64,000 nucleotides of DNA from an uncultured Ignavibacteria bacterium (GTDB taxonomy: Bacteria; Zixibacteria; MSB-5A5; CAIYYT01). Positions 1,794 to 40,302 of the stretch are shown here, piece after piece; the stretch's first letter is position 1, and each line of letters starts with the position of its first letter. The DNA is taken from contig CAZQBX010000003.1 of NCBI GenBank assembly GCA_964592145.1, positions 78,137-142,136 of the forward strand, written 5' to 3'. A program made the translations under genes and the position numbers. The notes under the pieces are model-generated. The model was not told where the DNA came from, did not search any database, and saw only the letters and a list, made by a program, of their open reading frames with translations.

Positions 1794-1810
1794 AATCTAC
1801 TAATGAGGAT

Positions 1811-14550: not shown

Positions 14551-14978
14551 AATTGAAAGTCCTGTTTTTGTGTACCGGTAATTCGTGCCGATCTCAAATG
14601 GCTGAAGGCTGGGCGCGGCAGCTTAAGGGCGCCACCATTGAGGCATATTCAGCCGGAACAAAGGCACAGGGTCTGAATCCGCTTGCAGTCAAAGTAATGG
14701 CGGAAGCGGGCGTAGATATTTCCGGACATCGTTCCAAGCACGTGGCGGAACTGATGCATGTCGACTTCGATTATGTGGTTACAGTCTGCGATCACGCTCA
14801 GGAAGCGTGTCCCATATTTCCCGGCAAAGCAAAGGTCATTCATCGCGGTTTCGATGACCCGCCGCGCCTGGCTGAAGGTGCGAAGTCGGAGGAAGAAGCA
14901 TTGAGACACTACCGCCGCGTCCGCGATGAGATTCGCGATTACATCCTCACTGTTCCGGAGGCGCTCCTTGCCCGTTGA
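14547..14978 (+). CDS. arsC: Arsenate reductase, LMW-PTP/thioredoxin-coupled type
   Basis: P-loop [14 protein letters not shown] at the N-terminus plus downstream Cys residues; 143 aa; 4-nt overlap with arsR. Confidence 0.8.
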
Positions 14979-16041
14979 ATGCAATCCGACCAAGCGGCTC
15001 GGTTTTGTCGATCGATATCTGACGCTGTGGATATTCCTGGCGATGGGGGTCGGTGTGGGGATTGGCCACTTCTATCCCGGCGTTGAAGGGTTCATTAATC
15101 AATTCCAGAACGGCACTACGAACATTCCAATCGCGATCGGGCTGATTCTGATGATGTATCCGCCGTTGGCCAAGGTGCGTTACGAAGAACTGGGCAAGGT
15201 ATTTCGCAATTGGCGCATTCTCGGTCTCTCGCTTCTGCAAAATTGGGTCATCGGTCCGATATTGATGTTCGCTTTGGCGATCGTATTTCTGGCCGGATAT
15301 CCCGAGTACATGACCGGTTTGATCATGATCGGTCTGGCTCGCTGTATAGCCATGGTAATCGTTTGGAATGAATTAGCTGACGGCGATACTGATTATGCGG
15401 CAGGATTGGTGGCGTTCAACTCGATTTTCCAGATTCTCTTCTATAGTGTTTATGCATGGATATTCATCACCGTTCTGCCCGGCTGGTTCGGATTACAGGG
15501 CAGTGTCGTGGAAGTTTCGATGGGACAGATTGCCGAGAGTGTCATGATCTATCTCGGAATTCCATTCTTCGCAGGCATGATTACGCGATTTGTATTGGTC
15601 AGAGCCAGAGGCAAGGAATGGTATCACAGAGTTTTCATTCCGAAGATCAGTCCAATCACGCTGGTTGCACTGCTGTTTACAATCCTGGTGATGTTCAGCC
15701 TCAAGGGAAACATGATCGTTCAGATTCCGCTGGACGTGGTGCGAATTGCCATTCCATTGTTGATCTACTTCGTCGTGATGTTCCTGGTCAGTTTCTATAT
15801 GGGCAGGCGCGTCGGAGCCGACTATTCCCGGACGGCGACGTTGTCATTCACGGCAGCCAGCAACAATTTCGAGTTGGCGATTGCCGTGGCGGTGGCGGTG
15901 TTCGGCGTCAATCATGGCGCCGCCTTTGCGGCAGTAATCGGTCCCCTGGTTGAAGTGCCAACTTTGATTGGACTGGTTAGTGTTGCTTTATATTTCCGTC
16001 GCCGCTTTTTTGCAGTGCCGAAGTCTCTGCAGCCGAGTTAG
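14968..16041 (+). CDS. acr3: Arsenite efflux transporter, ACR3 family
   Basis: [27 protein letters not shown]-terminal signature; about 10 TM. The ORF-track start at 14926 overlaps arsC by 53 nt, so the start was moved to TTG 14968 after a GGAGG RBS. Confidence 0.85.
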
Positions 16042-25017: not shown

Positions 25018-27612
25018 ATGTCGTTTCGTCGCTTTATCGCAGTACTGCTTTTCGTTACACTTTCCACCGCCGCTTATGCGGGCTTGCCGTCCACCAAGGT
25101 TACGCTTGAAAACGGACTTGAGGCAATCTTTGTCGAGAATCACTCGTCGCCGATGATTACATCGATTGTCTTTGTCAATGCCGGTGCACGATACGAGAAC
25201 CAGTTCAATAACGGCGCCACGCATTTCCTCGAACATCTGCTGTTTGACGGTACGAAGACCAAATCACAGTCTGAACTGGACGACCTGATCGAGCGACACG
25301 GAGGATACATTAACGCGTTTACGCGCAAGGACCTGACTGCTTACCTCGTTCTGATGCCAACCGACTACATCGATTACGGTCTTGACGTGCAGTCCGACCA
25401 GCTATTCAATTCAATTCTCCCCGAAGACCAATTTCCGAAAGAACGTAAGGTCGTAATCGAAGAGATTCGGCAGAGCCATGATCGCATTGACGACCTTGTC
25501 GATGACTTGCATCAGTCCGTTGTCTTTGCGGGCACTCCCTATGCGCGGCCGGTGTTGGGCTATGAGAATCTCATCAACACCGTGACGCGGCAAGAAATTC
25601 TGGACTACTATCAGACATACTATGCGCCAAACAACATGGTGGCGCTGGTGATCGGTGATTTCAACACAGCCGACATGGTCAAAAAGTATAAGCAGTACTT
25701 TGGCTCTGCACCGGCGAAAGCGATTCCAGCGGTGCCGCAGTTTGCCGTGAATCTTCCGAATGAGAAGAAAATCGTGAAGCAGGAAATGGAAAGCAAGAGC
25801 TGCTACCTGAACTTCACTTCCCGCGCACCGCTGTGGTCAGATCCCGATTACTTCGCCTTCTACATCCTCAATGATCTGCTCAATACACAGGGTGTTTCGC
25901 CGCTGCTGAAGGCGATATCGGGTCCGGATGGCAGCTTGACACAATCGGTGTCGGCTTCAGTCAATACACAGAAGGACTTCAGCACTTATGACATTTCGAT
26001 CAAGACTGACTCCATCCAGAACGTGCAGAAGGTGATTGACCTGTTGAATCAGGCAATGGAACAGACAGTCGCGACGTGGGAGCCGAGCGAGGCCGATATC
26101 AGATCGGTCATTACTTCGGCGAAGACGAGCGATATCTACCTTAAGGAAAAATTGCATTACTACGGATTCCAGGTAGCTCCGCTGATGGTCGCGACCGGGT
26201 ACGACTTCATCGACAACATGACGGCCAATATGGAGAAGGTGAAACCGGCGGATGTCAAGCGGGTGGCGGCGAAGTACTTCAAGCAATACAATTATATTGC
26301 GACCGTCGTTACGCCGTTTGCTGAGACAAAAACCTCGGCGGCGGCACAGATCAAGAGCAAGTACCTGCACGAAACGCTGCCAAATGGACTGGAAGTGATC
26401 ATCAAGTCGAATCCATACTCGCAGGTCCAGGCCTTCATGGTGCTGGGCAAAAACCGGGCGGCGATGGAACCACAGGGCAAGGAAGGCATCACTGATTTTG
26501 TCAACCGCATGCTCACTCACGGGACGAAGAATTACAGTACCGAGGCGATGTCGCGGGCGCTGGCAGCGATTGGCGCAAATTTAACGACGAATGACAATCC
26601 ATACATCCCCTATGATGATCGCTACACATCGCGGCAGTTCTCCTTCCTGAAACTGGAGACAATCTCGGACTTTACCGACAAGGGGATTGAGTTGCTCGCG
26701 GAGATGGTAAAAAACGCCACATTCCCGGAGAGTGAAGTTGAACAGGTGCGCGGCGAAGTCATGGGTATCCTCGGGATGCAATCGGGATCGACATCTGATC
26801 TGGCGAAGAACATATATTATGACTTGCTCTTCAAAGACACGCGCTTCACCAGCCCCGAGACCGGAACCATGCGATCCGTAGGCGGTTTCACGGCGGAGGA
26901 TTTAAGAGCACACTATTCTAAGTTCTACGCAGCGAATAATGTGATTCTGTCGGTCTGCACCGACCTGGAACCAGAGCAGATGCTCTCGAAGATCAGGAGC
27001 GCGTTCGGAGATCTGCCGAAGGTGGATCTCGGGACTGTCCCGGCTGTTGCGCCAAGACTGATCACAGGAGAACTCAAAGAGAACAAGCCGATGGAAAAAA
27101 AGCAGGCGTACATGTACATCGGCAACGCAGTATGCGGCGCTTCGAGCCCTGATGCGGTTGTGATGCGGGTCGCGGTTGACATACTCTCAACACGTCTCGG
27201 AAAGGTCTTGCGCGAGCAGCAAGGATTGGCTTATCGCGTAGGCGCTGGTGTCGGATTTGACCGCGACTTCGGCTGGTTTTCGGCGGCAATGGGTACCGGA
27301 GTTGAGAACTATGCGGTCGCAAAAGCCGGGATCTTACATCTGATTGATTCAATGCGAACTGTGGAAGTTTCTGCCGAGGAACTTGAACGTTCGGTCAATT
27401 CACTCTGGGGATCGCAGTTGACGGCGCGCCTCTCGCGGATCAACCAGGCTTACTATATGGCGGTGAATCAATTTCTCGTTGGGAAATATGATGTTGAGGA
27501 TGATTTGATCACCGCAATGAAAGCGGTTACAGCCGCTGATGTCAAGCGCGTGGCGGAGAAGTATTTTGACACAAAGAACTATGTGGTCGCTACCGTCGGA
27601 GCGCCGGAGTAA
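25018..27612 (+). CDS. Secreted M16-family zinc peptidase (tandem active/inactive domain pairs)
   Basis: Signal peptide (MSFRRFIAVLLFVTLSTAAYA); HxxEH motif (HFLEHLLFDGT); 864 aa. Confidence 0.8.
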   Translation: MSFRRFIAVLLFVTLSTAAYAGLPSTKVTLENGLEAIFVENHSSPMITSIVFVNAGARYENQFNNGATHFLEHLLFDGTKTKSQSELDDLIERHGGYINAFTRKDLTAYLVLMPTDYIDYGLDVQSDQLFNSILPEDQFPKERKVVIEEIRQSHDRIDDLVDDLHQSVVFAGTPYARPVLGYENLINTVTRQEILDYYQTYYAPNNMVALVIGDFNTADMVKKYKQYFGSAPAKAIPAVPQFAVNLPNEKKIVKQEMESKSCYLNFTSRAPLWSDPDYFAFYILNDLLNTQGVSPLLKAISGPDGSLTQSVSASVNTQKDFSTYDISIKTDSIQNVQKVIDLLNQAMEQTVATWEPSEADIRSVITSAKTSDIYLKEKLHYYGFQVAPLMVATGYDFIDNMTANMEKVKPADVKRVAAKYFKQYNYIATVVTPFAETKTSAAAQIKSKYLHETLPNGLEVIIKSNPYSQVQAFMVLGKNRAAMEPQGKEGITDFVNRMLTHGTKNYSTEAMSRALAAIGANLTTNDNPYIPYDDRYTSRQFSFLKLETISDFTDKGIELLAEMVKNATFPESEVEQVRGEVMGILGMQSGSTSDLAKNIYYDLLFKDTRFTSPETGTMRSVGGFTAEDLRAHYSKFYAANNVILSVCTDLEPEQMLSKIRSAFGDLPKVDLGTVPAVAPRLITGELKENKPMEKKQAYMYIGNAVCGASSPDAVVMRVAVDILSTRLGKVLREQQGLAYRVGAGVGFDRDFGWFSAAMGTGVENYAVAKAGILHLIDSMRTVEVSAEELERSVNSLWGSQLTARLSRINQAYYMAVNQFLVGKYDVEDDLITAMKAVTAADVKRVAEKYFDTKNYVVATVGAPE

Positions 27613-27617
27613 ACTCA

Positions 27618-28163
27618 CTAACGGCCGACTGCGCGCAGTGCTTCGAGATGTTCGGGCCAATAACGAGCGATGTCGGATTCAGTAACGAGTCGTCCGGACA
27701 ACGACAGCAACACGAAGGAATCGCCGGTATCGTGATACCAACCGGCAGTTAGTGCGCCAAGAAATGAAATCGGGCCAACGCTGATGAGTCTCGGTTCCGG
27801 GTCGATCACGCCTTGCTCATCCATCTCGAAGCGGGCGCCCTCGGTGGAAAAAAGATTGAGCTTGAGCGTTTTGACGTTGGATTTCGAACAGATTTCCGTG
27901 ACTGAATTGCGCTTCGGGTCATCGCGATAAACGGAGACGAGAACACCGTTTCGAATCACAGGGACAATCAAAAAATCCTTAAACTTCTCTCCATAGCCAG
28001 CCACTCGCAAAGCAGCGCCGACTGAATCACCGGCAGCGCCAGCTGTTTTCAGTTCCGCCGAGACCATTCGACGCATTTGATCCGGTGTGATTTCATCAGC
28101 CGGTGCGACAGCGAACAAACTGAACACAATTGCAGCAACGGCAGTCAACTTAATCAGGTTCAT
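27618..28163 (-). CDS. Hypothetical exported protein
   Basis: N-terminal signal peptide (MNLIKLTAVAAIVFSLFAVAPA); no motif recognised. Confidence 0.4.
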   Translation of the reverse strand: MNLIKLTAVAAIVFSLFAVAPADEITPDQMRRMVSAELKTAGAAGDSVGAALRVAGYGEKFKDFLIVPVIRNGVLVSVYRDDPKRNSVTEICSKSNVKTLKLNLFSTEGARFEMDEQGVIDPEPRLISVGPISFLGALTAGWYHDTGDSFVLLSLSGRLVTESDIARYWPEHLEALRAVGR

Positions 28164-28695
28164 TAAACGATCCTTTGGGCTGGCGTTTGATGGTCGTGTG
28201 CTCGAGTCGTTGATCAGTCTCGAGCCCGAATCCGGAAATCATATCGCCGCCGCGATAGATTTCGACATAGCCTTCGGTCTCGATGCGCTCGGTCTTGGCG
28301 TTCCAGCGGAGCGAATCGGCAACGAGGCGACGGTTATCTTCTGTCCAAGCCTTGACGTGGCCAAAGACCGACATGGTGCTGGCGCGCTGACTGACTCTGG
28401 AGGAGTCAGCAGTGAGGGTCGACGTGTGGTTGCCGGAACTGTCGAAGAATAATACTTCCACCTTGTAGAGTAGAGTCGTATCGATTCGCGCATAGGTCAT
28501 CAGCGTGTCGGATTTGATCGTCGCTTTGCGCTTGCCGCCGCTGGTAAGGTAGATCTCGGAATTGGTCATCACCTGATCCGGCGCGTCGCTGACGGTGGTT
28601 TTGGCAGGTGGAGTCTCAGTTGTGTCGGCGCCGCAGGAAATGATCGTTGCGGCGACGCAGGCGTAAATCAGACACAAGCGGCAGATTTGTTTCAT
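28150..28695 (-). CDS. Hypothetical lipoprotein, possibly LptC/OstA-N-like
   Basis: Lipobox (ATIISCG); beta-rich; weak resemblance to the LptC fold; 14-nt overlap with the downstream gene. Confidence 0.3.
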   Translation of the reverse strand: MKQICRLCLIYACVAATIISCGADTTETPPAKTTVSDAPDQVMTNSEIYLTSGGKRKATIKSDTLMTYARIDTTLLYKVEVLFFDSSGNHTSTLTADSSRVSQRASTMSVFGHVKAWTEDNRRLVADSLRWNAKTERIETEGYVEIYRGGDMISGFGLETDQRLEHTTIKRQPKGSFNEPD

Positions 28696-28784
28696 CGCAT
28701 TATTATACGATATTGCAACAAACTAAGCAGTTGATTTTGGAATTTTCGCAAACCGTTCCAGACGCTCTCGCTAGCTACTGTCTC

Positions 28785-29264
28785 CTAGCTATTTACGTAG
28801 TCCTGTCGATAGCTGCGTTTGACATCATTACTACGGAGATCGATTCCATGCTCGAGATAGCTCTTTAGATTTGTCAGGAAGAACGTCCAACCCTGTATAC
28901 AACCCCGGTGCATTGACCATTTGGATTCCGGATCGGTTTTCATGTTATATTGCTTGAGTTCGCAAAGGGTGCCCTTACCATCCTTCTTGAAGACAACCGA
29001 AACCTCGGTGCCGTCTTTGCCAAATGGAAATACAAACTTCTTGTTTTTGACAATCTGCTTGACCTTGTCATCGAGTTTATCGCCGGCGAGCCATTCGAAG
29101 TAGAGGCGGCCGCCCTTGCGGGGTTCAATCACCGTCTTCTGCGTAAACCATTTAGAGACGACTCTGTCATCAGTCCACGCTTGAAAGACCTTCTCCGGTT
29201 TGGTGTTGATGTAAACCCGTAAGACAAACTGCGACCAATCGTGTTTCTTACTTTTTGCTGCCAT
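28785..29264 (-). CDS. SRPBCC-superfamily protein (AHSA1/Aha1-like)
   Basis: VYINTKPEKVFQAWTDDRVVSKWF N-terminal signature. Confidence 0.55.
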   Translation of the reverse strand: MAAKSKKHDWSQFVLRVYINTKPEKVFQAWTDDRVVSKWFTQKTVIEPRKGGRLYFEWLAGDKLDDKVKQIVKNKKFVFPFGKDGTEVSVVFKKDGKGTLCELKQYNMKTDPESKWSMHRGCIQGWTFFLTNLKSYLEHGIDLRSNDVKRSYRQDYVNS

Positions 29265-29412
29265 CTCGTTCCTCCAGTGAATGGTTGTCGCTGCAAAAGT
29301 AGCCTATTTCTCGCGATTTTGTCAATCACCGATTAGTTAGACCGCTGCCACAACTATCGTGCTTACGAGCGTATAATCGGGTGGGTTGAATTGGAAACGA
29401 AGGAATCACAAG

Positions 29413-30036
29413 ATGAAGATCACAGCAGTAGGCTTATCGGCAGCCCTGATTGTCAGTATTGCATTGGCAGGGACACCGGCTCCCGATGCAAAGAAAGAAT
29501 CGAAGACGGAGAGCACCATGACGGAACAAACAGCAATCGAGTACCGGGCGATACCTTTCAAGACAATTGATGGCGAAGCGATCAGCCTCAAGGCCTTCGA
29601 AGGCAAGGTGGTGCTGATCGTCAATGTCGCGAGTCATTGCGGCTACACCAAGCAGTACACGGGTCTTGAAGCGCTGTACGACAAGTACAAGAATCAGGGT
29701 GTTGTGGTTGTCGGGTTCCCAGCGAATAATTTCGGCGGGCAGGAACCGGGAACAGATGAAGAAATCAAGGAATTCTGCACCACCAAGTTTGATGTATCAT
29801 TTCCGATGATGTCAAAGGTTAGTGTCAAGGGGGACGACATCCACCCGTTGTTCAAGTACCTGACACAGACTTCAAATATTCCCGGGGAAATCGCCTGGAA
29901 CTTCAGCAAATTCTTGATCGACCAGAAGGGCAATCTCGTGGCGCGCTGGCCATCTAAAGCTGAACCGATGGGTGAAGAGATTACCGGCAAGATTGAAGAA
30001 CTATTGAAGGCGTCCAAGAGGGAAAACAAGTCTTAA
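29413..30036 (+). CDS. Glutathione peroxidase (Cys-type, exported)
   Basis: VVLIVNVASHCGYTKQY active-site motif with Cys (TGC), so no selenocysteine; FPANNFGGQEPG and WNFSKFLID motifs; signal peptide from M29413. Confidence 0.85.
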   Translation: MKITAVGLSAALIVSIALAGTPAPDAKKESKTESTMTEQTAIEYRAIPFKTIDGEAISLKAFEGKVVLIVNVASHCGYTKQYTGLEALYDKYKNQGVVVVGFPANNFGGQEPGTDEEIKEFCTTKFDVSFPMMSKVSVKGDDIHPLFKYLTQTSNIPGEIAWNFSKFLIDQKGNLVARWPSKAEPMGEEITGKIEELLKASKRENKS

Positions 30037-30054
30037 CGTAAAGGCTCCAAAAAT

Positions 30055-30092
30055 GAAAAAGTGCGGCCGTCGATTTCGATAGCCGCACTTCT
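30055..30092. terminator. Hairpin (gtgcggc/gccgcac, 14-nt loop) flanked by an A-run; terminator for the convergent minus-strand operon
   Basis: On the minus strand the hairpin is followed by CTTTTTCATTTTTGG. Confidence 0.45.
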
Positions 30093-30111
30093 GATTCCCA
30101 CTCCCTCGCTA

Positions 30112-33100
30112 TTACTTTTCTCCGAAAACCTGCGACAATTTGGCATCGGTGCGTTCATCAAGAACGAGCACATTGGGGTACTTCACTTCGGTGGCCTTGA
30201 CTAATGTTGGATACACTTCGAAGTTAGCCCTGCCGCCAGGAGCAGGAAACGTCTGGCCGAATTTCGCCGCATTGTCGACTTTCTGATCCCGTTCGGGCAG
30301 CAGCTTGTGCATCTCCTTGGCAAGGAACTCGTGCGAATATGATGCGCCGTGAACACCACCATCGGCAGACTGCATAATCCGTGCGATAATATCAATGTTG
30401 CTGTGGCCGGTAAGTGATTTGCCCAGAGGTTTCAATGACTGCCGCAAGCCCTCCCAATTCGTCATAGTACCTTCATCTTCGACATAGCTGTTGAGCGGAA
30501 GGACAACGTCAGCGAGTTTAGCGGTTTCGGTCATGAACAAATCGGCAACGACCAGAAACTCGAGTTTCTCCACGCGTTTATACCAATCGGGATCGATAGC
30601 GGGATTTTCACCGAGGATGACTGCACCTTTGAGTTTGCCATTCTCAAAATCAGTGCGGAAGTCACCGCCCTCACCGTTCTTCAAGCAGTCAAGATCGTGA
30701 TTCCACAACGTCGATAGCTTCGCAAAACTCTCGGGGGTGATCAGTGCGCCGCCCGGTAACAGCCGTTGATCGAAGCCGGCGATTTGCATGCCACGGGTAT
30801 TCGCTTGGCTTGACAACAGAATCATTCCGCTTCCGTCGGTGCCGATTCGTCCGGTCATAAGCATCAACGAGGCCAGTGCTTTGAGGTCGTTCGGTGAGCG
30901 GTCGCGACGGCTGTCCAGGTTGTAAATGGCGACGACTTTGCGATCTTTGGCGGAAAGCAATCGGGCGCATTCTTCAATTTTAGCGGCCCGGACGCCGGTT
31001 ACCGATGAGACCTCGTCGGTATCGATGACTTCAATGTATCGACGGAAGCGTTCGTAGTTCTTGGTGCGCGAGTCGAGGTAGGACCGATTCTCTTCGCCCT
31101 GTCGAATGACCTCGGCCATCAATCCATTAAGCAGCAAGGTTGCTGTTCCGCGGCGCGGATCAAGCCACTGCGTGGCATAACGGTTGATTCCAATGTCTGC
31201 GGAATTGACAACGATGGCTTGCTTTCCCTTCTTGAGCATGCGTTTGAGCCGCCAGCCCAGGACGGGATTCTCGGTAAAGGGATCGCAATTGACGAGCAAG
31301 ATCAGATCTGCCGATTCCAACTCGGTTGTTCCGCAGGTAGACACTGTTGCGCCCAACAAACCGTCGAGCGCGTGATAGTCGGCCTCGGTCGCCAAGTGCT
31401 GGAAACTGCCAATGGCATTGGTTTCAAGGGTGACGCGGGCGAGCTTACCTGCAAGGTAGAGTTCCTCATCGGTGAGTTTCGGCGACGCCGACACCATCAT
31501 TGCCTTACGCCCGTACTCGAGGCGGAGATCTTTTGCGCCTTGCTCGATTCGCTCCCAGGCTTCTTCCCAAGTTGCCGGTACCAGATCGCCGCCCTTGCGG
31601 ACGTATGGCTTGCGCAGGCGTTCGTTGCCGAGAAGCTGCTGATAACCGTATCTGCCTCGAACGCACAACTCACCGAAGTTTGGTTCGCCCTCGAAAGAGC
31701 CGGAGACATAGAACAGGTCGGCGGTCTTGGCGTTGATCTCAACGTTACAGCCGATAGAACAGAAATTGCAGACGTTCTTGATGCGGTGCATCAGCCACGG
31801 ACCAGAACGACCGAACGGCAGTTTGTTGACGATTGCTCCAGTTGGACAAACGTCGACGCAGTTGCCGCACGAGACGCAGTTGGTTTCGGCGAGGGCTTTT
31901 TCGAGGGCCGGCTTGACCATGGTGCGGAAACCGCGATTAACGAAGCCGAGCGCAGAGACATCGAGGATGTCGGCACAGGTTCGCACGCAGCGGCCGCAGT
32001 TGATGCATTTGTTTGCGTCGAGTGTGATGTAGGGATGGCGCGTATCGATCTTGTAGCGGTTGAATTCACCGACAAAACGCGTCTGGTCGGCGCCATACTC
32101 ACCACAGTAGTCTTGCAGCTTGCATTCAAGTGCAACCTGACAGCCGCACTCCATACAGCGGCAGGCTTCGAATTTTGCCTGTTCTTCTGTAAGCCCAAGT
32201 TCAACTTCTTTAAAAGAGCGGATTCTCTCGGCGACCGGCAATTCCGCGATGTGAGTTCGTTCGCTGGTCTTCGGATCGCAGAAGTCTTCGGTGGTAAAGT
32301 CCTTAAGATTGTCTTTGCGGCTGGCGAAGAGCGGCTTGAGGCGTTCGTAGTGGCCGGTTTCAATAAAACGTTGAATCGCATAGGCCGCTAGACGACCGGC
32401 TGCTACGGCATCGATAGCGTCAGCAGGACCAGTGACGACGTCGCCACCGGCGAAAACACCAGGCCGATTTGTCTTGAAAGTACCTTCGGCCGCGATGATT
32501 GTATGCCACTTGCTAAGTTCAATTTCGTTCTCATCCGAATCGCCATTTTGGACGCCGGCAAGGTCGGCCTCCTGACCAATGGCAGAAATCACAAAGTTGC
32601 AGTCCAGCGTGTAGTTAGAGCCCTTCTTTTCGACCGGACGGCGACGACCCGATGCATCTGGTTCGCCGAGTTCCATTTCGATGCATTCCATTGATTGAAG
32701 CACGCCGTCTTTGGAATTGATCTTGGTCGGAGCCGCCAGATACTTGAAAACGATGCCCTCTTCCTCTGCGGCGACGATTTCCATTTCGTTTGCCGGCATT
32801 TCTTTGCGTGTGCGGCGGTAGAGCAGGATGACTTCGTCGGCACCGAGGCGAAGCGAAGTTCGGGCGGCGTCAATAGCCGTGTTTCCGCCGCCGACCACAA
32901 CCACGCGGCCCTTGATCGCCGGTGCGTTGTTCATCGTCACGTCGCGCAAGAAGTCAACACCGCCGAGCACGTTCGTTACCTGCTCATTGGCAATACCCAT
33001 GCTCTTGGCGAGTTGAGCGCCGAGGCCAACAAACACGGACTTGTAGCCTTGTTCAAAGAGCCCGTCAATAGTGATGTCGCGCCCGAGTCTCGTGTTGGTG

Positions 33101-33873
33101 TGGACATCGACACCTAAGTCAGTGATCCATTTGATTTCTTTATCGAGAATCGCCTTCGGCAGACGGTATTCCGGTATACCGTAACGCAGCATGCCGCCGA
33201 GTTCGGGCAGCGCTTCGAACACCGTCGGCTCGTAGCCTTCGAGTGTCAGGTAGTAGGCGCAAGTCAATCCGGCCGGACCGCCGCCGATGATTGCGACTTT
33301 CTTGCCATTACGAGGCTTCGGAACTGGAGTCCACATGTCGTCGAGGTCTTTGTCTGCGGAGAATCGTTTCAAGTAGTCGATTCCAACTGCATCATCGATC
33401 AATTTTCGGCGGCATGACAGCTCGCATTTGCGAGTGCAGACCCGGCCGCAAACCGACGGGAATGGGTTCTTTTCCTTAATAAGTTGGACGGCTTCGTGGT
33501 ATTTGCCCAGATATGTCAATGAAAGGTAGCCCTGAATATCAACGTCCGCAGGACAGTTCAGGCGACAAGCGCCGAAACAATCGGCATAGTGGTTGGAAAC
33601 CAGCAACTCCAGGCACGTCTTCCGCGCATCGACAACTTTCGGCGAGCGCGTTTGCAGCACCATGCCGTTCCACGGCTTGGTGGCGCAGGACGGTACGAGC
33701 TTGCTCATGCCTTCGACTTCGACGACACACAAGAAGCATGAACCGAACGGTTCGAGCTTTCGGTCGTAGCACAAGGTTGGGATCGAGTCGAGTTTTTGAT
33801 CGTGAACGATTTCGAGAATGGTTTTACCGGGATCAGCGGTGACTTGTTTGCCGTTTATGGTAATCGTAATCAT
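30112..33873 (-). CDS. Fused iron-sulfur flavoprotein: [2Fe-2S] ferredoxin, GltD-like NAD(P)H FAD oxidoreductase, 2x[4Fe-4S], and a molybdopterin-oxidoreductase-like domain lacking the Mo-ligand Cys/Sec (SfrA/SfrB-like fusion rather than a true formate dehydrogenase)
   Basis: N-terminal NuoG/FdhA-like 2Fe-2S (CYDRKLEPFGSCFLCVVEV). GltD signature (NPFPSVCGRVCTRKCELSC; KKVAIIGGGPAGLTCAYYL...GGMLRYGIPEYRLPK). Two CxxCxxCxxxCP ferredoxin motifs. MopB 4Fe-4S (CNFCSIGCNV). In the region aligning to FdhF ARVUHGPSV the sequence is AIGSFQHLATE with no Cys. No in-frame TGA. Confidence 0.7.
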   Translation of the reverse strand: MITITINGKQVTADPGKTILEIVHDQKLDSIPTLCYDRKLEPFGSCFLCVVEVEGMSKLVPSCATKPWNGMVLQTRSPKVVDARKTCLELLVSNHYADCFGACRLNCPADVDIQGYLSLTYLGKYHEAVQLIKEKNPFPSVCGRVCTRKCELSCRRKLIDDAVGIDYLKRFSADKDLDDMWTPVPKPRNGKKVAIIGGGPAGLTCAYYLTLEGYEPTVFEALPELGGMLRYGIPEYRLPKAILDKEIKWITDLGVDVHTNTRLGRDITIDGLFEQGYKSVFVGLGAQLAKSMGIANEQVTNVLGGVDFLRDVTMNNAPAIKGRVVVVGGGNTAIDAARTSLRLGADEVILLYRRTRKEMPANEMEIVAAEEEGIVFKYLAAPTKINSKDGVLQSMECIEMELGEPDASGRRRPVEKKGSNYTLDCNFVISAIGQEADLAGVQNGDSDENEIELSKWHTIIAAEGTFKTNRPGVFAGGDVVTGPADAIDAVAAGRLAAYAIQRFIETGHYERLKPLFASRKDNLKDFTTEDFCDPKTSERTHIAELPVAERIRSFKEVELGLTEEQAKFEACRCMECGCQVALECKLQDYCGEYGADQTRFVGEFNRYKIDTRHPYITLDANKCINCGRCVRTCADILDVSALGFVNRGFRTMVKPALEKALAETNCVSCGNCVDVCPTGAIVNKLPFGRSGPWLMHRIKNVCNFCSIGCNVEINAKTADLFYVSGSFEGEPNFGELCVRGRYGYQQLLGNERLRKPYVRKGGDLVPATWEEAWERIEQGAKDLRLEYGRKAMMVSASPKLTDEELYLAGKLARVTLETNAIGSFQHLATEADYHALDGLLGATVSTCGTTELESADLILLVNCDPFTENPVLGWRLKRMLKKGKQAIVVNSADIGINRYATQWLDPRRGTATLLLNGLMAEVIRQGEENRSYLDSRTKNYERFRRYIEVIDTDEVSSVTGVRAAKIEECARLLSAKDRKVVAIYNLDSRRDRSPNDLKALASLMLMTGRIGTDGSGMILLSSQANTRGMQIAGFDQRLLPGGALITPESFAKLSTLWNHDLDCLKNGEGGDFRTDFENGKLKGAVILGENPAIDPDWYKRVEKLEFLVVADLFMTETAKLADVVLPLNSYVEDEGTMTNWEGLRQSLKPLGKSLTGHSNIDIIARIMQSADGGVHGASYSHEFLAKEMHKLLPERDQKVDNAAKFGQTFPAPGGRANFEVYPTLVKATEVKYPNVLVLDERTDAKLSQVFGEK

Positions 33874-33881
33874 TATTCACC

Positions 33882-35645
33882 TTAGTCCTTGATAACCGCG
33901 TCCTGATTGCAGACAGTAAAACACTTCCCGCACTGGATACACAGATCCTGCAGAATCTTGTGCGGCATCTTCTTTTCGCCGATGATGGCATCGGTCGGAC
34001 AGGAGCGCGGACAGAGCATGCAGCCGTTGCACTTTTCCTGGTCAATCGTGTAAGTCAACAACGGACTGCAAACATGCGCCGGGCACTTCTTCTGACGAAT
34101 GTGCGCTTCGTATTCATCGCGGAAGTAGCGCAGAGTAGACAAGACCGGATTCGGCGCCGTCTGGCCGAGCCCACATAGTGATGCGATTTTTATCTGCTCG
34201 CCGAGTTGGTCGAGTGTGACGAGATCTTCTTCCTTGCCCTTGCCTTCGGTGATACGCTCAAGAATCTCCAGCATGCGCTTGGTGCCGATACGGCAGAAGG
34301 TACACTTGCCGCAGGATTCCGCTTGTGTAAATGCGAGGAAAAATTTGGCAACATCGACCATACAGGTGGTTTCGTCCATCACGACCATACCACCCGAACC
34401 CATAATTGCGCCGGTCTTATTGATCTGCTGATAATCTATCAGCGTCTCGCCGAGCGAGGCCGGTATACAACCACCGGATGGTCCGCCCATTTGGACGGCT
34501 TTGAACTTCTTATCGTTGATGATGCCGCCGCAGATCTTGAAGATGATATCGTTGATACTCATCCCCATCGGGACTTCGACCAAGCCAGTGCGCTTGACTT
34601 TGCCTGCCATGGCAAAGACCTTTGTGCCCTTGCTGTCTTCAGTGCCATAGGCGGCATAGGCAGCGCCGCCATTGAGAATAATCCACGGAATATTGGCAAA
34701 GGTTTCGACGTTGTTGATGTTGGTCGGTTTTCCCCACAAACCTTGCTGGGCCGGAAATGGCGGGCGGAACCGCGGCATGCCGCGACGACCTTCGATTGAG
34801 GCTATCAGCGCGGTTTCTTCGCCGCAGACGAAAGCGCCTGCGCCTTCTTTGACTTTGATACTAAAGTTGAAGTTGCTGCCGAAGATATTGTCGCCCAGAA
34901 GTCCCTGTTTTTTTGCCTGCGAGATAGCGAGGCGCAGACGGGCAACAGCTTTGGGATATTCTGCACGGCAATAGATGTATGCTTCATCGGCGCCGATCGC
35001 AAAACCAGCGATCATCATCCCTTCAAGGACGGAGTGTGGATCGCCCTCGAGAACTGAACGATCCATAAATGCGCCGGGGTCACCCTCGTCGGCATTGCAG
35101 ATGATGTATTTCTTGTCCGAAACGCTAGCACGAGTCAGTTCCCATTTCTTTCCTGTCGGGAATCCACCACCACCGCGCCCGCGTAATCCGGAAATCTGGA
35201 CTTCCTTGATGACTTGCTCGGGTGTCATCTCTTTGATGACTTTCTCGACGGCTTTGTAACCACCGCTCTGCAGATATTCCTGAAGCGAACTCGGATCGAT
35301 CACACCGCAGTTGCGGAGCACAATCCGCACTTGCTTGTCGAAAAAACCGACTTCTCGGTCGGCGCCGGAAACCAACCACTCGTCAATCGGCTTGTCGTTC
35401 TGAATATGGTCAGCGACGATTCGCTTTACGCGATCCGGGGTGACTTCGCCGTATAAGTAAGATTCCTGGTTGCCATTGGAAATCGAGACGAGCACCTCCC
35501 GGTAGCACATTCCAACGCAGCCGGTCTCACGGAGGACAAAGTCGGCGCCGTTCTGAAGCTCTTTCTGGAATGCCTCATAGACTTTTTCGCCGCCGGCAGA
35601 GATGCCGCAAGTAGCCAATCCGACCATTACAGTTTTTATAGCCAT
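33882..35645 (-). CDS. NuoF/HoxF/HydB-like NAD(P)H-binding FMN iron-sulfur subunit with an N-terminal thioredoxin-like 2Fe-2S domain and a C-terminal 2x[4Fe-4S] ferredoxin
   Basis: GGAGAFVCGEETALIASIEGRRGMPRFRPPFPAQQGLWGKPTNINNVETFANIPWI (51-kDa subunit signature); C-terminal CxxCxxCxxxCP x2. Confidence 0.85.
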   Translation of the reverse strand: MAIKTVMVGLATCGISAGGEKVYEAFQKELQNGADFVLRETGCVGMCYREVLVSISNGNQESYLYGEVTPDRVKRIVADHIQNDKPIDEWLVSGADREVGFFDKQVRIVLRNCGVIDPSSLQEYLQSGGYKAVEKVIKEMTPEQVIKEVQISGLRGRGGGGFPTGKKWELTRASVSDKKYIICNADEGDPGAFMDRSVLEGDPHSVLEGMMIAGFAIGADEAYIYCRAEYPKAVARLRLAISQAKKQGLLGDNIFGSNFNFSIKVKEGAGAFVCGEETALIASIEGRRGMPRFRPPFPAQQGLWGKPTNINNVETFANIPWIILNGGAAYAAYGTEDSKGTKVFAMAGKVKRTGLVEVPMGMSINDIIFKICGGIINDKKFKAVQMGGPSGGCIPASLGETLIDYQQINKTGAIMGSGGMVVMDETTCMVDVAKFFLAFTQAESCGKCTFCRIGTKRMLEILERITEGKGKEEDLVTLDQLGEQIKIASLCGLGQTAPNPVLSTLRYFRDEYEAHIRQKKCPAHVCSPLLTYTIDQEKCNGCMLCPRSCPTDAIIGEKKMPHKILQDLCIQCGKCFTVCNQDAVIKD

Positions 35646-35661
35646 TGTCCCAATACCTTCC

Positions 35662-36141
35662 CTATTTCCGCTTCAAGTCGCGCACGAGCTTGCGTGTTTT
35701 CTGAGGGGTCAAGCGGCCAAAGGTTTCGTTGCTGACCATAACGACCGGAGCTAACGAGCAACAACCCAGACACGCAACGGAGACCATGCTGAATTTCCCG
35801 TCTTCGGTCGTTTCTTCGTAGTTGATGCCAAGTTCGTCTGTCAAGGTATTGGCGATTTCCTTGACGCCATTGACATGGCAAGCAGTACCGTTGCATACCT
35901 TGATAACTTTTTCACCAAGGGGCTTGGTCCGAAATTGCGCGTAGAAGGTAACGACACCATAGATTTCTGCCGGAGGAACTCCGGTTACGTGACTGATGTA
36001 GTCAATGGCGCGTTCGGATACATAACCGTATGTATCTTGCGCTGATTGCAGCAGCGGTATAAGAGCTCCGGCGTGGCCGTCATACTTCCAAATATCTACA
36101 TTAAAGGGTTTGAATTCTTTATCATTCGTCTCCATGGTCAT
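35662..36141 (-). CDS. NuoE/HoxE/HydC-like thioredoxin-like [2Fe-2S] ferredoxin subunit
   Basis: VCNGTACHVNG...SVACLGCCSLAPVVMV 24-kDa subunit motif. Confidence 0.8.
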   Translation of the reverse strand: MTMETNDKEFKPFNVDIWKYDGHAGALIPLLQSAQDTYGYVSERAIDYISHVTGVPPAEIYGVVTFYAQFRTKPLGEKVIKVCNGTACHVNGVKEIANTLTDELGINYEETTEDGKFSMVSVACLGCCSLAPVVMVSNETFGRLTPQKTRKLVRDLKRK

Positions 36142-36324
36142 GTCTCCTGATGTAGAGCGGCGAGACGATCACACCACAAACTTGTTCGGTGTCGGTCGAC
36201 AGGCTTTTCCATTGCCAAACCTATGTCTTTGTGAAAAAAATCGCAAGCAAAATCGTCCTGTTTCTGCATTTTTTCCATTTCAATCACTAATTTATGAGAT
36301 AATTTATCCTGTATTAGTGTCGGC

Positions 36325-36876
36325 TTAGAAGCCCGCGAGCTTAATAATGCGATTTTCCTTTGCTCGCAGCACGCCGGGGAGGGGACGAATCCTATCATTA
36401 ATCAGCTTGTCCAAGGAGTCAAAACTGGTGGCCTCTATACGCAGGACGAGTGAGAATTGGCCGCTGGCGACTTCGCAGGAAGTCACAGAGCCTAAGACAC
36501 TTAGGGTGCTGAAGATGTCCTCAAAATGACGACGGTCGGTCTCGAGAAACAGGTAGCACTCGGCGCTGGGCTTGGTAGATTTAGTTGACTGCTCGTTGCC
36601 GTCATTGGCACCCTCGACGGCCAATTCGACGTGGCAGATATCAACTTCCTTCACACCCTTCAGAATTCGGATCGTGTTACTGACGAATTGATCGATATTG
36701 GCGCCCGGCAGATCTCGAATGAGAAGAATGATATCGTAGTCGCCGTCAACAGCGTCGGAAGCGAGAACCTGATCAAAACCAGCCAGGGCTTGCATGACTT
36801 CCAAACGATCTTGACGGTTGTGTACCTTGAGGAGTGCGTAACTGCCGGTGGGTCTTTCATTAGTGTCGAAGTCCAT
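36325..36876 (-). CDS. Hypothetical protein with two tandem Lrp/AsnC-type C-terminal (RAM) domains and no HTH
   Basis: Two about 75-aa halves with beta-alpha-beta-beta-alpha-beta-like pattern (YALLKVHNRQDRLEVMQALAGFDQV... and CYLFLETDRRHFEDIFSTLSVLGSV...); first gene of the nuoE/F-like operon. Confidence 0.35.
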   Translation of the reverse strand: MDFDTNERPTGSYALLKVHNRQDRLEVMQALAGFDQVLASDAVDGDYDIILLIRDLPGANIDQFVSNTIRILKGVKEVDICHVELAVEGANDGNEQSTKSTKPSAECYLFLETDRRHFEDIFSTLSVLGSVTSCEVASGQFSLVLRIEATSFDSLDKLINDRIRPLPGVLRAKENRIIKLAGF

Positions 36877-37062
36877 TTGTGCTCCTGTGCTCAGGCGGGT
36901 CGAAAGAGATTGTAAGTGGACGAAGTTAACGCCTGTTCACTTGAAATATATTAGTGGAACGGCCAATATTAAAGATATTTCTTGGCGAAGTTAGATAAAT
37001 TTGTTCACTTTTTTGCTCCCGCAAGCAGCTTGTTCAACGCTCAATTCTGACTTAGATTACCC

Positions 37063-40000
37063 TTGATGAAAGCAAGCACATCCGGAAAATGCCTTGGAAT
37101 CCCCTGGCTAATTGTATTGGCGATCATGACTTTAGTTGGATTAGTCGCCAATCCAGGATTCTCCGCGGATACGGGAGAAGAGCAGACCAAAGTTGACTCC
37201 CTTGAATTTGACAGTCGATTTGCGCTGTATCGATACCTGCAGCGCGGATTCGAAGAGTACTTCGACAAAGGTGATGTGAGCCGTTTAGCGGATTTGGAGC
37301 TTGCTGCCCGATATGTAAGTGAAACGTTTGGCGATGATTTCTATCTTCGGCAATGCGACAAGTTCAAGAACTGGCGGGAAAACTACCTCACAAAGCGTAG
37401 GCAACTGAAGGTCGAATATTCGCTGAATCAGCAAGGGCTGAATCAAGTAGACGTTCCTGCAGACACCTATTGCGATCAGATGATGAAATTGGCCGATGCG
37501 TTCCTTGAACTTGGAGACTCGGCCTCGGCAGTTAACTGTCTGCAAGTAGCCGGCGCAATGGGAGCGGGAAGAACCAGTTCGGATAACATAAGGGGATTGT
37601 TATCGAAATCGCTGGCCATCAGCCGAGCGATTGGCGACCTCGATGGGCTGTCGCGAAGTTATAATCTTACCGGAAGATTCCACGAGCAACGTGCCGAGTT
37701 CATAAAGGCGGGCGCCTATTTCGATTCGGCGCGCGTCATCAAATTCGAGCTTGGCGATCTCGCCGGTAGTGCCGACGCCCTGAACAACATCGCCTCGGTC
37801 TACCTCTCAATTGGCGACAAGGCAAATTCGTTGCGGTTTGCCGAAGAAGCACTGCAACAGAGGCGCGAACTTGGCGATTCAACGCAAGTTCTGCAATCGC
37901 TGTTGATGATAATCCCGGCCTTTGCCCGCGATGTTCCGGATTCGACTGCCCAACAATGGCTCAATGAGGCAGATCGACTTTCGCGCCTGCAATCGGAACC
38001 ACAACCGATGGAGCGACTTGCCTACAGCCGAGGAGTAATAGCCGAGTTGGGCGGCGAACTTGATTCGGCACTTAGTCAGTATTCGCAAGCCCTCGCCATT
38101 GCCACCGGTTCGAAAAATCACCGTCTAGCGCTCGCCATACTTCAGAACCTTGCCGCTCTCGAGTCGTCGATGGGACGTTTTTCGGAGTCTGTAGCTCATT
38201 ACGTTGCGGCACAGGAGCTTGCGACAAACTCCCGCAATAGTGCGGCGCTGGCGACTATCTACCACAATCTTGGCTCTTTGCACCAACGACTGGGTGATCT
38301 CGAGTTGGCGAGCGACTACTACCGCCGTGCTTTGGAAATCCGTCGCCAATTGGATATGAGAATTCAATCTGCAGAGACTTTAGGCAATTTGGCAGAGCTG
38401 TATTTGACGACCGGTGACCCTGCAACAGCGGAGGTGTATATCCGTCAGGCGATACAAGTCGCGCAACTTGCCGGCGATCGACGACGTCTCGCCTCAGCGC
38501 TCACACGATTGGCGCACCTCAGGCAATTAAATAAGGACTACGTCGGAGCAATGGCAGAGCTTGACAGTGCAGAGGCGGTTGAATCGGAATCACAAACTCC
38601 ACAGCGCCGGATCGATTATCTTTGCCTGCGGGCAGAGTTTTCACGCCAGGCACAAGAACTGGCACAGGCTGACAGATATCTCTCGGACGCTTACCGAGTC
38701 CTCGACTCATGTGCAACCTATACCAATCGCCAAAGGGTTGATATCATCAGAGCCGAATTGGCTGCCGACCGTAAGCGCTGGCGGGAGGCATACACCAGTT
38801 TGGCAACGGTCATTGCTCGCTCCGAACAGTTGCGCGGAAGTATTCCCAATCCGCAGCTGCGGACGAGTTTTCAGGGACGGTCGCGTTTTGTTTATGAGCA
38901 CATGGTCAAGACGCTGTTCAATCTTCGAAAGTCCGGCGAGTTTTCCGGAGGGGACGACTCTTTGCTGGCATATACTGAAAAGGCCAAATCGCGAGGTCTG
39001 CTGGACGCCGTGTATGGAATGGACGGACCGAACGATTCGCGGCAATGGGCGCATATGCGGTCGGAAGAGTCAAATCTGCTTCGAGAAGTTGAACGTGTTG
39101 AGCAATCGCTCGCAGACGACGGCGATGCCCAGTCGATCAAGCGCAAGATATCGTTGCTGGCGAATCTCGAAACGCGGTTGACCGACTTGCGGCTCAAGCA
39201 AGGCGCGGCGATTTCAACATCAGCCCGAATCTACAGTCCCCAACCGATTTCGATCCGGAAGATTCAGTCATCTCTACCAGACGAACGCACCGCGTTGATT
39301 TCATTTCTGCTTACACCTGAATCAAGTTACGTCATTCTCCTGGATCGTCGGCGGTTTACCGTTGAAGAGATTCCGGGTCGCAGCGAGATATCCGCCCGAG
39401 TTGCTGAATTTGCACGATTGATCCAGGTCTCGATCAAGGATGAGTCGCTTCTGGACAGCCTGGATGCAATTGCCGAATTGCTGGGCAAACAACTCCTCCC
39501 ACGGGAGTTGTTCGCGCAAGGCAACTACAATCATCTGCTGATTTGTGCAGATGGCATACTAAGCGTTCTTCCATTTGAAGCACTGCGTTTCAACGACAGA
39601 TACTTGATTGAAAGTTCGGCGATCGCTTCTGTGCCCTCGCTGTATCTGTACGGTTCAGGCAGCAGCAATTCGCAGCCACCTAAGGCGACGCGTCTACTTG
39701 CGCTCGCCGATCCACGCAACAACTCACAGTTGAGACAATTGCCGTTCAGCGCCAGAGAGGTTGACTGGATCAGCGAAGCCTTCGGCAAATCAAATTGCAC
39801 GATCCTGACTGCAACACGAGCCACCAAATCCGAATTGTTACGGCTGAATTTGTCTGATTACGGTATTGTCCATGTCGCGACGCATTCGACAATTAACTAC
39901 ACCGATCCACGACGATCCAAGATCTGGCTTTCGGCTGATTCTTCTCTGATTGATGGCGAAAGCATCCTCTCGTTGGCGGAAATCGGTGAACTCGAACTTT

Positions 40001-40302
40001 CGGCAGATCTGGTTGTCTTGTCATCCTGTGAATCCGGAGGCGGAAGTCTTGACATCGGTGAGGGCCTCGACGGCTTTGCCAAAGCATTCTTACAGGCCGG
40101 AGCGGGCAACTTGGTCGTTTCACTCTGGGAAGTCGAGGACTTCACCACAGCGGCATTCATGAAGACTTTTTATAATAACCTCAAGTCCGGATATGCTGAT
40201 GCTCTACGGACGGCAAAGTTGGAAATGATAACTTCGCCACGACTGCGGCACAGGCATCCCTACTACTGGTCACCATTCAAGCTGATTGTCGGTCGCAATT
40301 AG
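37063..40302 (+). CDS. Exported TPR-repeat protein with C-terminal CHAT (caspase-like) protease domain
   Basis: Signal peptide or TM (IPWLIVLAIMTLVGLVA). About 700 aa of TPR-like repeats (NLAALESSMGRFSESVAHYVAAQELA...). CHAT catalytic dyad context (IVHVATHS ... ADLVVLSSCESGGG) and CHAT C-terminal signature PYYWSPFKLIVG. Confidence 0.8.
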   Translation: MMKASTSGKCLGIPWLIVLAIMTLVGLVANPGFSADTGEEQTKVDSLEFDSRFALYRYLQRGFEEYFDKGDVSRLADLELAARYVSETFGDDFYLRQCDKFKNWRENYLTKRRQLKVEYSLNQQGLNQVDVPADTYCDQMMKLADAFLELGDSASAVNCLQVAGAMGAGRTSSDNIRGLLSKSLAISRAIGDLDGLSRSYNLTGRFHEQRAEFIKAGAYFDSARVIKFELGDLAGSADALNNIASVYLSIGDKANSLRFAEEALQQRRELGDSTQVLQSLLMIIPAFARDVPDSTAQQWLNEADRLSRLQSEPQPMERLAYSRGVIAELGGELDSALSQYSQALAIATGSKNHRLALAILQNLAALESSMGRFSESVAHYVAAQELATNSRNSAALATIYHNLGSLHQRLGDLELASDYYRRALEIRRQLDMRIQSAETLGNLAELYLTTGDPATAEVYIRQAIQVAQLAGDRRRLASALTRLAHLRQLNKDYVGAMAELDSAEAVESESQTPQRRIDYLCLRAEFSRQAQELAQADRYLSDAYRVLDSCATYTNRQRVDIIRAELAADRKRWREAYTSLATVIARSEQLRGSIPNPQLRTSFQGRSRFVYEHMVKTLFNLRKSGEFSGGDDSLLAYTEKAKSRGLLDAVYGMDGPNDSRQWAHMRSEESNLLREVERVEQSLADDGDAQSIKRKISLLANLETRLTDLRLKQGAAISTSARIYSPQPISIRKIQSSLPDERTALISFLLTPESSYVILLDRRRFTVEEIPGRSEISARVAEFARLIQVSIKDESLLDSLDAIAELLGKQLLPRELFAQGNYNHLLICADGILSVLPFEALRFNDRYLIESSAIASVPSLYLYGSGSSNSQPPKATRLLALADPRNNSQLRQLPFSAREVDWISEAFGKSNCTILTATRATKSELLRLNLSDYGIVHVATHSTINYTDPRRSKIWLSADSSLIDGESILSLAEIGELELSADLVVLSSCESGGGSLDIGEGLDGFAKAFLQAGAGNLVVSLWEVEDFTTAAFMKTFYNNLKSGYADALRTAKLEMITSPRLRHRHPYYWSPFKLIVGRN

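Follow-up and report, generated by a model that had tools for sequence, protein, structure and literature searches.

The locus described here raises the question of what kind of enzyme includes a large protein that resembles a formate dehydrogenase (FDH) in its C-terminal part, binds NADPH through a GltD-like module and is encoded next to NuoE-like and NuoF-like subunits. The genes are on the minus strand of the window (i.e., the whole 64-kb stretch of DNA analyzed), whose host is probably an uncultured Zixibacteria-like bacterium. In transcription order, they comprise an open reading frame (ORF) for a protein with two RAM domains, hereafter RAM2 (36325-36876, 183 amino acids (aa)), the gene for a NuoE-like, thioredoxin-like [2Fe-2S] subunit (StnA, or NfnC/BfuC; 35662-36141, 159 aa), the gene for a NuoF-like subunit binding flavin mononucleotide (FMN) and NAD(H) (StnB, or NfnB/BfuB; 33882-35645, 587 aa), and the gene for the large [2Fe-2S]-GltD-ferredoxin-FDH-like fusion (StnC, or NfnA; 30112-33873, 1253 aa, without internal stops). 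The gaps between these ORF coordinates were 183, 16 and 8 nucleotides (nt), respectively. As judged from subunit homology and gene context, the three redox genes very probably encode a StnABC/NfnABC complex (Nfn-Bfu, or Type 1 Bfu) that contains a dead FDH-like remnant and has a clade-specific, co-inherited double-RAM partner.

The redox genes were assigned to StnABC/NfnABC because the best solved-structure match of every subunit was the cognate Stn/Nfn subunit. All three subunits best matched the same three complexes (StnABC, or Sporomusa-type Nfn, of Sporomusa ovata, 8OH5; NfnABC of Caldicellulosiruptor saccharolyticus, 9BOV; and NfnABC of Thermococcus sibiricus, 9N5U) in a sequence search against all solved structures. 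Gene order and close spacing were also those of the stn operon, with NuoE-like, NuoF-like and GltD-NuoG/FDH-like genes adjacent and co-directional, and the stnA-stnB-stnC order was kept in every locus with enough upstream DNA. Stn/Nfn-Bfu complexes have been purified and solved by cryo-electron microscopy, and they couple NADPH oxidation to a reduction of both NAD+ and ferredoxin at the same time (PMC7483475, PMC9304861, PMC10482914, PMC11829005, PMC12018979). Family traits also include ferredoxin reduction by NADPH that takes place only in the presence of NAD+, its reverse, and a quaternary structure in which four heterotrimers form a tetramer. Their large subunit is described in the literature as a GltD/NfnB-like module for NADPH and flavin adenine dinucleotide (FAD) inserted into a NuoG-like protein, with an FdhF-like C-terminal part. 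As read from its sequence, the locus adds an uncharacterized member to a known, structurally solved family.

StnA consisted of a NuoE-type 2Fe-2S_thioredx domain (Pfam, E 3e-51), and its best solved-structure matches were NfnC in 9N5U (9n5u_C, 5e-49), 9bov_C (2e-48) and StnA in 8OH5 (8oh5_A, 3e-43). StnB displayed the Pfam domains Complex1_51K, SLBB and NADH_4Fe-4S, together with an N-terminal DUF1636-type thioredoxin-like stretch (residues 17-77) and a C-terminal 2x[4Fe-4S] Fer4 domain (residues 532-584) harboring CxxCxxCxxxCP and CxxCxxCxxxC motifs at residues 538-583. Its matches to 8oh5_B (StnB, 3e-266), 9bov_B (2e-258) and 9n5u_B (3e-244) ran end to end (579 residues, 6-584) with few gaps. 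These two accessory domains are absent from the non-bifurcating NuoF, FdsB and HoxF and serve to recognize a bifurcating BfuB (PMC9304861). Both were found in the window StnB, by Pfam and by alignment to StnB/NfnB.

The Pfam domains of StnC followed each other in the order Fer2_4 (1-77), Fer4_20 (102-177), Pyr_redox_2 (191-493), Fer4_Nqo3 (614-681), Molybdop_Fe4S4 (695-747) and Molybdopterin (752-1152), and four parts were delimited along the minus strand. The N-terminal [2Fe-2S] ferredoxin-like domain (residues 1-101; 33571-33873) was recognized by Fer2_4 and by alignment to 8oh5_C and 9bov_A. It is followed by a GltD/NfnB(L)-like NADPH:FAD module that holds two [4Fe-4S] clusters (residues 102-565; 32179-33570; Fer4_20 and Pyr_redox_2), by a Cys-rich linker with a NuoG-type 2x[4Fe-4S] ferredoxin domain (residues 566-689; 31807-32178; Fer4_Nqo3 and cysteines invariant in the alignment), and by the FDH-like domain (residues 690-1253 and the stop codon; 30112-31806; alignment to FdhF, AlphaFold2 and Foldseek). 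Four motifs described for StnC (PMC7483475) were present and read from the translation: HxxxCxxxCxxxCP (H95-P108), CxxCxC...C (residues 573-584, C573-C584), the FAD motif GxGxxG (G197-G-G-P-A-G202) and the NADPH motif GxGxxA (G328-G-G-N-T-A333). Mutagenesis of S. ovata StnC showed the importance of K170, a ligand of the first [4Fe-4S] cluster, and of R239 at the FAD site (PMC10482914). These residues correspond to Lys169 and Arg237 of the window protein in the HMMER alignment to 8oh5_C, and were kept in 197 and in all of the 198 homologues surveyed, respectively. The structure matches of StnC were NfnA of C. saccharolyticus (9bov_A, 3e-256), StnC of S. ovata (8oh5_C, 1e-228) and NfnA of T. sibiricus (9n5u_A, 5e-194).

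Much of this had been anticipated in a preliminary description of the stretch. The gene order given there (minus strand; double-RAM, NuoE-like, NuoF-like and 1253-aa fusion) was recovered with the same ORFs and Pfam domains, all the Fe-S domains it had added to the NuoF-like protein were confirmed by Pfam, and the Pfam order agrees with a complete GltD-like NAD(P)H/FAD module inserted between N-terminal clusters and a molybdopterin-oxidoreductase-like domain. An electron-bifurcating or confurcating NADH/NADPH/ferredoxin oxidoreductase, as proposed there, is also the best reading by subunit homology. The "unusual architecture" attributed to the enzyme has to be given up, a [2Fe-2S]-GltD-NuoG/FDH-like fusion with NuoE and NuoF genes being what defines StnABC/NfnABC (PMC7483475, PMC10482914, PMC11829005, PMC12018979).

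The FDH-like domain of StnC is the part on which the distinction from an FDH turns. FdhF of E. coli K-12 (from NC_000913.3) was taken as reference for the Mo ligand and aligned to residues 690-1253. Its Sec140 (U140) fell on Ala828 (codon 31390-31392, within 31381-31401, which translates as QHLATEA), His141 on Thr829 and Arg333 on Ser1021. The same ligand position, Ala828, was obtained in HMMER alignments to 9t1s_L, a Sec-containing F420-dependent FDH, and to 7vw6_A, a Cys-containing tungsten FDH. Among the 198 homologues, none had Cys in the Sec-equivalent column, which varied between V, L, A, T and I; therefore no active-site constraint acts at this position. The [4Fe-4S] cysteines 8/11/15/42 of FdhF were retained as C702/C705/C709/C737. 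The C-terminus of StnC fell near residue 585 of the 715 of FdhF, so that the pterin-capping domain IV is missing, and no Pfam match to Molydop_binding (PF01568), which represents domain IV, was obtained in the 1253-aa protein. The AlphaFold2 model of the domain reached a predicted local distance difference test (pLDDT) score of 92.9, and Foldseek placed it close to FDH catalytic subunits (TMq 0.82-0.88), to C. saccharolyticus NfnA (0.81) and to S. ovata StnC (0.78).

The preliminary description had stated that Cys or Sec is lacking at the Mo-ligand site and had named its presence in an alignment as grounds for dropping the idea; the alignment gave Ala828. Its length estimate for the domain (about 560 aa) was close to the 564 aa measured, and its rejection of an FDH stands, with Sec/Cys, His, Arg and domain IV all missing. 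Any novelty implied by the loss of the Mo site falls away, a pterin-free FDH-like domain having been described for both bacterial structures. The FDH-like part of S. ovata StnC is "catalytically inactive", with its clusters C1/C2 off-pathway and required for tetramer assembly (PMC10482914), while C. saccharolyticus NfnA has an "incomplete" pterin site without pterin density (PMC11829005). By analogy, the domain is probably vestigial in the window protein as well, with a likely structural role in oligomerization.

Comparison with the solved complexes displayed a common organization with a few differences. The S. ovata StnABC (8OH5/8OH9; PMC7483475, PMC10482914) has the same three genes in the same order, the same accessory domains in its NuoF-like subunit, and an StnC of the same domain order ([2Fe-2S], GltD-like FAD/NADPH, Cys-rich linker, 2x[4Fe-4S], Molybdop_Fe4S4 and pterin-free FDH-like domain). 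The large subunit is longer in the window (1253 against 1172 aa), with the surplus within the FDH-like domain, and Cys114 of S. ovata is replaced by Ile113, Ile or Val being found throughout the window clade. The window host, unlike S. ovata, is not an acetogen, and therefore the link of the S. ovata enzyme with the Wood-Ljungdahl pathway does not carry over. NfnA of C. saccharolyticus (9BOV/9BP5; PMC11829005) was the best overall match to the window StnC, over query residues 2-1031 and 1077-1213; its complex has the same dead-end cluster branch, incomplete pterin site and BfuBC core, for which an FMN-[4Fe-4S]-[2Fe-2S] "flavobicluster" was proposed as the bifurcation site. NfnA of T. sibiricus (9N5U/9N5V; PMC12018979, PMC9304861) is much shorter (963 aa) and misses part of the FDH-like domain. 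At the N-terminal site of the NuoF-like subunit, a [2Fe-2S] cluster was modeled in S. ovata and Zn in C. saccharolyticus and T. sibiricus; the three-Cys pattern of the window is that of both S. ovata and C. saccharolyticus and is compatible with either. Mo/W-bis-pyranopterin FDHs (E. coli FdhH 1AA6/1FDI, M. extorquens FDH1 7VW6 and the F420-dependent FDH 9T1S) have the fold of domains I-III and the [4Fe-4S] cysteines in common with the window protein, whereas their Sec/Cys ligand, catalytic His, Arg and domain IV are absent from it.

The fourth gene, RAM2, encodes a protein in which Pfam matched AsnC_trans_reg (RAM) in two stretches and no helix-turn-helix (HTH). Lrp/AsnC regulators, in contrast, have a winged HTH at the N-terminus and then one RAM domain. 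The AlphaFold2 model (pLDDT 80.6) comprised two beta-alpha-beta-beta-alpha-beta modules and a disordered linker (residues 88-101), and was most similar by Foldseek to stand-alone RAM modules (TMt 0.8-0.93, for single modules) and to the RAM pair of NirDL. Each half is a RAM module as in the stand-alone proteins S. tokodaii STS042 (2ZBC), to which a sequence match was also obtained (E 7e-6), and P. horikoshii DM1 (2E1A). Matches to NCBIfam LysM and LrpA1 concerned the RAM part only and were far under cut-off. The fold gave no functional pointer, the Foldseek matches being to generic ferredoxin-like and dimeric alpha+beta-barrel proteins. A relation to NapD was considered and set aside, as the matches were sub-threshold (17 bits for the protein of locus L079 against a 28-bit cut-off; PF03927 on protein P0144) and a shared fold is the simplest explanation.

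The distribution of RAM2 was followed in the 72 loci that had enough upstream DNA to be assessed. A RAM2-type ORF, stand-alone or receiver-fused, was located directly upstream of stnA and on the same strand in 52 of them, spread over Zixibacteria, Ignavibacteria/Bacteroidota, Chlorobi-like bacteria, Verrucomicrobia, Acidobacteria, Aminicenantes, Syntrophorhabdales and others, with differing flanking genes. No RAM2 gene was found in 17 of the 72, all among the more distant loci (39-47% identity). The closest group comprised the 24 loci whose full-length StnC is at least 56% identical to that of the window and two (L048 and L054) in which a contig end truncates StnC; all 26 assessable loci had stand-alone RAM2. 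In the loci at 56-59% identity to the window, RAM2 and stnA were separated by about 10 nt or overlapped by 4 nt. Searched with a profile, the RAM2 family proved sharply delimited, with 42 database hits whose E-values all lay below 1e-28, and the three RAM2 homologues whose surroundings were looked up were each followed by NuoE/NuoF/StnC genes (3/3).

In 25 loci with StnC 40-52% identical to that of the window, the RAM pair was fused to a response-regulator receiver domain (REC), a fusion confirmed by Pfam in six of the 25 (in one, L059, weakly). The REC+RAM+RAM protein measures about 336 aa, as in Syntrophorhabdus aromaticivorans UI (locus L028, 2419-3477). In locus L005, for which Pfam domains are on record, stnC is followed by a PAS histidine kinase and a response regulator of the sigma-54 type, and about 20 REC-RAM2 loci have a receiver-containing ORF of similar size in the corresponding downstream place. 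Such loci would encode a two-component system with a RAM pair, instead of a DNA-binding domain, as its output.

The recurrence of RAM2 in 52 of 72 loci and the reverse context of its homologues (3/3) suggest that it is a dedicated regulatory partner of the transhydrogenase, and we infer that it most likely senses a small molecule and regulates the enzyme or its expression. A stronger version, in which RAM2 or REC-RAM2 is a fourth component that senses a metabolite or phosphorylation and controls the enzyme post-translationally (e.g., by docking on the FDH-like domain) or acts as an assembly factor, is put forward only tentatively and seems rather doubtful; if true, it would be the first allosteric or signaling control described for a Bfu-type bifurcating enzyme. 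No mention of a RAM/AsnC partner of Bfu enzymes was found in the Stn/Nfn-Bfu papers examined, including that on S. ovata.

The 183-nt spacer between RAM2 and stnA (36142-36324) may carry a further level of control. A palindrome, TTGCGA-TTTTTT-TCACAA, of the CRP/FNR-like type TGNGA-N6-TCACA was found in it at 36229-36246 (minus strand), within a block composed of TTGCGATTTTTTTCACAA and then TAGGTTTG. The latter lies 6 nt downstream of the palindrome and resembles a -7 box of the Bacteroidota type. The spacer block was almost invariant in eight loci with StnC 67-95% identical to that of the window, and the strict palindrome motif occurred once in the 64-kb window. Two further copies with three mismatches (465-482 and 1065-1082) were discarded as they failed the stricter half-site pattern; one of them lies in a methyltransferase ORF. 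An 86-aa ORF overlapping the spacer (36138-36398) was not retained as a gene, as it had no Pfam match and the indels of the spacer were not multiples of three. No Rfam family was found in the spacer in a scan of 29500-37500 with E up to 1 (the sole match was a chance snoRNA in a coding region), and promoter and terminator scans over the operon gave counts no higher than in shuffled sequence. A spacer of this kind was absent from the more distant clade with RAM2-stnA gaps of about 10 nt. The spacer block is probably an internal regulated promoter for stnABC, and the palindrome suggests control of the CRP/FNR type.

Two other readings of the redox genes have to be weighed against a StnABC/NfnABC complex. 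A real FDH, possibly NADP-linked or bifurcating (Fdh-Bfu type), is what the many database records naming homologues "formate dehydrogenase major subunit" or "formate dehydrogenase H" imply, and is scarcely credible: beside the replacement of Sec140, His141 and Arg333 by Ala, Thr and Ser, the variable ligand column devoid of Cys and the missing domain IV, neither fdhD nor molybdopterin-biosynthesis genes adjoin the operon in the window or in the compared loci, and pterin is absent from the solved homologues (PMC11829005). The domain content of StnC also recalls the SfrAB of Geobacter, a soluble NADPH:Fe(III) oxidoreductase made of a GltD-like SfrB and a NuoG/FDH-like SfrA that is not a working molybdoenzyme, with published identities of 39.9% between the N-terminal part of StnC and SfrB and of 27.8% between its C-terminal part and SfrA (PMC7483475). 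An SfrAB/Nso-like enzyme, in which the FDH-like domain or the cluster branch is the acceptor site, could further be argued for from the archaeal homologue NsoC, originally presented as a sulfur oxidoreductase (work cited in PMC7483475), from the ability of the characterized enzymes to reduce viologens with NADPH via the large subunit alone (PMC10482914), and from two multiheme cytochrome c/cytochrome b fusions at 1769-6489, by which the host may perform metal or extracellular electron transfer. It is nevertheless highly unlikely. SfrAB is set apart by its organization and by the published identities: it consists of two separate polypeptides without a NuoEF module, while the window has a single fusion and a complete BfuBC core that is translationally close-coupled (16- and 8-nt gaps) and conserved in every locus. 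Moreover, Nso is proposed to be an Nfn-type enzyme by the authors of PMC7483475, bifurcation was demonstrated for the homologue from T. sibiricus (PMC9304861, PMC12018979), and over 23 kb separate the cytochrome genes from the operon, with which they are not syntenic in other loci. The "fused SfrA+SfrB" of the preliminary description captured a fair resemblance that was already in the literature, and does not hold as a class.

The remaining alternative concerns RAM2, which could be a mere neighbor (an amino-acid-responsive regulator or an unrelated small protein) of a plain three-gene stn operon. The enzymes of S. ovata and C. saccharolyticus are active as heterotrimers, and the S. ovata genes are flanked by metVF and pabAB and lack a neighboring RAM gene (PMC7483475, PMC11829005); besides the 17 assessable loci devoid of RAM2, the window itself has a spacer with its own conserved promoter-like block parting RAM2 from stnA, and StnA, StnB and StnC have no co-varying signature positions. 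Such a coincidence is made unlikely by a RAM2 gene that holds to one place and strand across several phyla (52 of 72 loci) despite differing flanks, by gaps of about 10 nt or 4-nt overlaps at 56-59% identity to the window, and by the sharp delimitation of a family whose looked-up members all adjoin NuoE/NuoF/StnC genes. The StnABC/NfnABC complex with a RAM2 partner has its own points against it. The role of RAM2 is inferred from a single kind of evidence, synteny, and no indels or columns tracking RAM2 were detected in StnA, StnB or StnC relative to RAM2-less loci, by a crude test confounded by phylogeny. No ferredoxin gene lies within the operon. The enzymology comes from Firmicutes and Thermococcus members that are distant relatives of the window clade, the clade-specific peptide patterns used to scan for loci are not common to S. 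ovata StnC and the window protein, and the physiological direction of the window enzyme is not readable from its sequence. Finally, the FDH-like domain is about 75 residues longer than its counterpart in the solved bacterial enzymes and, taken alone, matches genuine FDHs better (3e-55 to 1e-44) than C. saccharolyticus NfnA (6e-42) or S. ovata StnC (3e-36); given this greater length and these stronger scores, a residual function is possible. The domain also keeps the motifs GENP and VVxDxFxTETAxxADVVLP. It is read here as a less decayed remnant than that of the solved enzymes and not as a sign of catalysis.

If the window complex works as its characterized homologues do, a hydride would pass from NADPH to the FAD of the GltD-like module of the 1253-aa subunit, and electrons would then travel singly, first via the [4Fe-4S] cluster with the Lys ligand and next along the chain of NuoG-type clusters, to reach the FMN bound by the NuoF-like subunit. 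StnB and StnA would form the bifurcating core, with bifurcation taking place at the FMN together with the adjacent [4Fe-4S] and the NuoE-type [2Fe-2S] clusters. One branch would reduce NAD+ at the FMN, and the other would reduce ferredoxin by way of the mobile NuoE domain and then the C-terminal 2x[4Fe-4S] domain. The reaction would be reversible, so that NADPH could be made in vivo from NADH and reduced ferredoxin, and its direction in vivo is probably whichever balances the NADH, NADPH and ferredoxin pools. The FDH-like C-terminal domain would be catalytically dead, with off-pathway clusters, and probably mediates oligomerization.

The four-gene unit is bordered by a divergent TPR-CHAT gene (37063-40302, plus strand) and by a convergent glutathione-peroxidase-like gene (29386-30036, plus strand). 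The flanks (25018-30036 and 37063-40302) were syntenic with those of the 85%-identical relative (locus L001, Candidatus Zixiibacteriota), the genes concerned being an M16 peptidase, an unannotated 181-aa ORF (27618-28163), LptC-like, AHSA1, glutathione peroxidase and the TPR-CHAT protein. The window's flanks were not syntenic in more distant stn loci, and therefore the four-gene unit alone is conserved. Further away in the window, 1769-4441 and 4477-6489 (both plus strand) encode adjacent large proteins with many CXXCH motifs (Cytochrome_C7, Paired_CXXCH_1) and a C-terminal cytochrome b561-type (Ni_hydr_CYTB) membrane domain. The second multiheme protein has an MtrC/MtrF-like domain, the pair may serve electron transfer to metals or to the outside of the cell, and a TetR-like ORF (1182-1793) lies just upstream of it. 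An ArsP-type permease and an SBF (Acr3-like) transporter at 11384-12691 and 14926-16041 (both plus strand), respectively, may mark an arsenic-resistance region. Four long ORFs on the minus strand had no Pfam match at E <=1e-5: 6575-10156 (1193 aa), 55119-56321 (400 aa), 57675-58901 (408 aa) and 58920-62354 (1144 aa).

The nearest StnC relatives (85-95% identity) came from metagenome-assembled genomes, one of them (85%; P0002) named Candidatus Zixiibacteriota, and GTDB records at 79-95% StnC identity were titled "uncultured Ignavibacteria". Remoter full-length homologues were found in Bacteroidota, Acidobacteriota, Verrucomicrobia, Aminicenantes, Syntrophorhabdales and others. With peptide patterns specific to the window clade only, at least 587 stn loci were obtained from a one-genome-per-species collection. 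Public records label the homologues "formate dehydrogenase major subunit", "formate dehydrogenase H" or "molybdopterin-dependent oxidoreductase", and, judged by the sequence features above, the FDH labels are wrong. The regulation of Stn/Nfn-Bfu enzymes is not addressed in the literature examined on them, and RAM2 and REC-RAM2 offer a modest, testable lead on it. The main value of the locus is for annotation, in that such homologues should be annotated as a bifurcating transhydrogenase's NADPH-binding subunit. For Zixibacteria, Ignavibacteria, Aminicenantes, Syntrophorhabdales and further uncultured anaerobes, metabolic reconstructions would change with it, losing a predicted formate-oxidizing step and gaining a connection among the pools of NADH, NADPH and ferredoxin.

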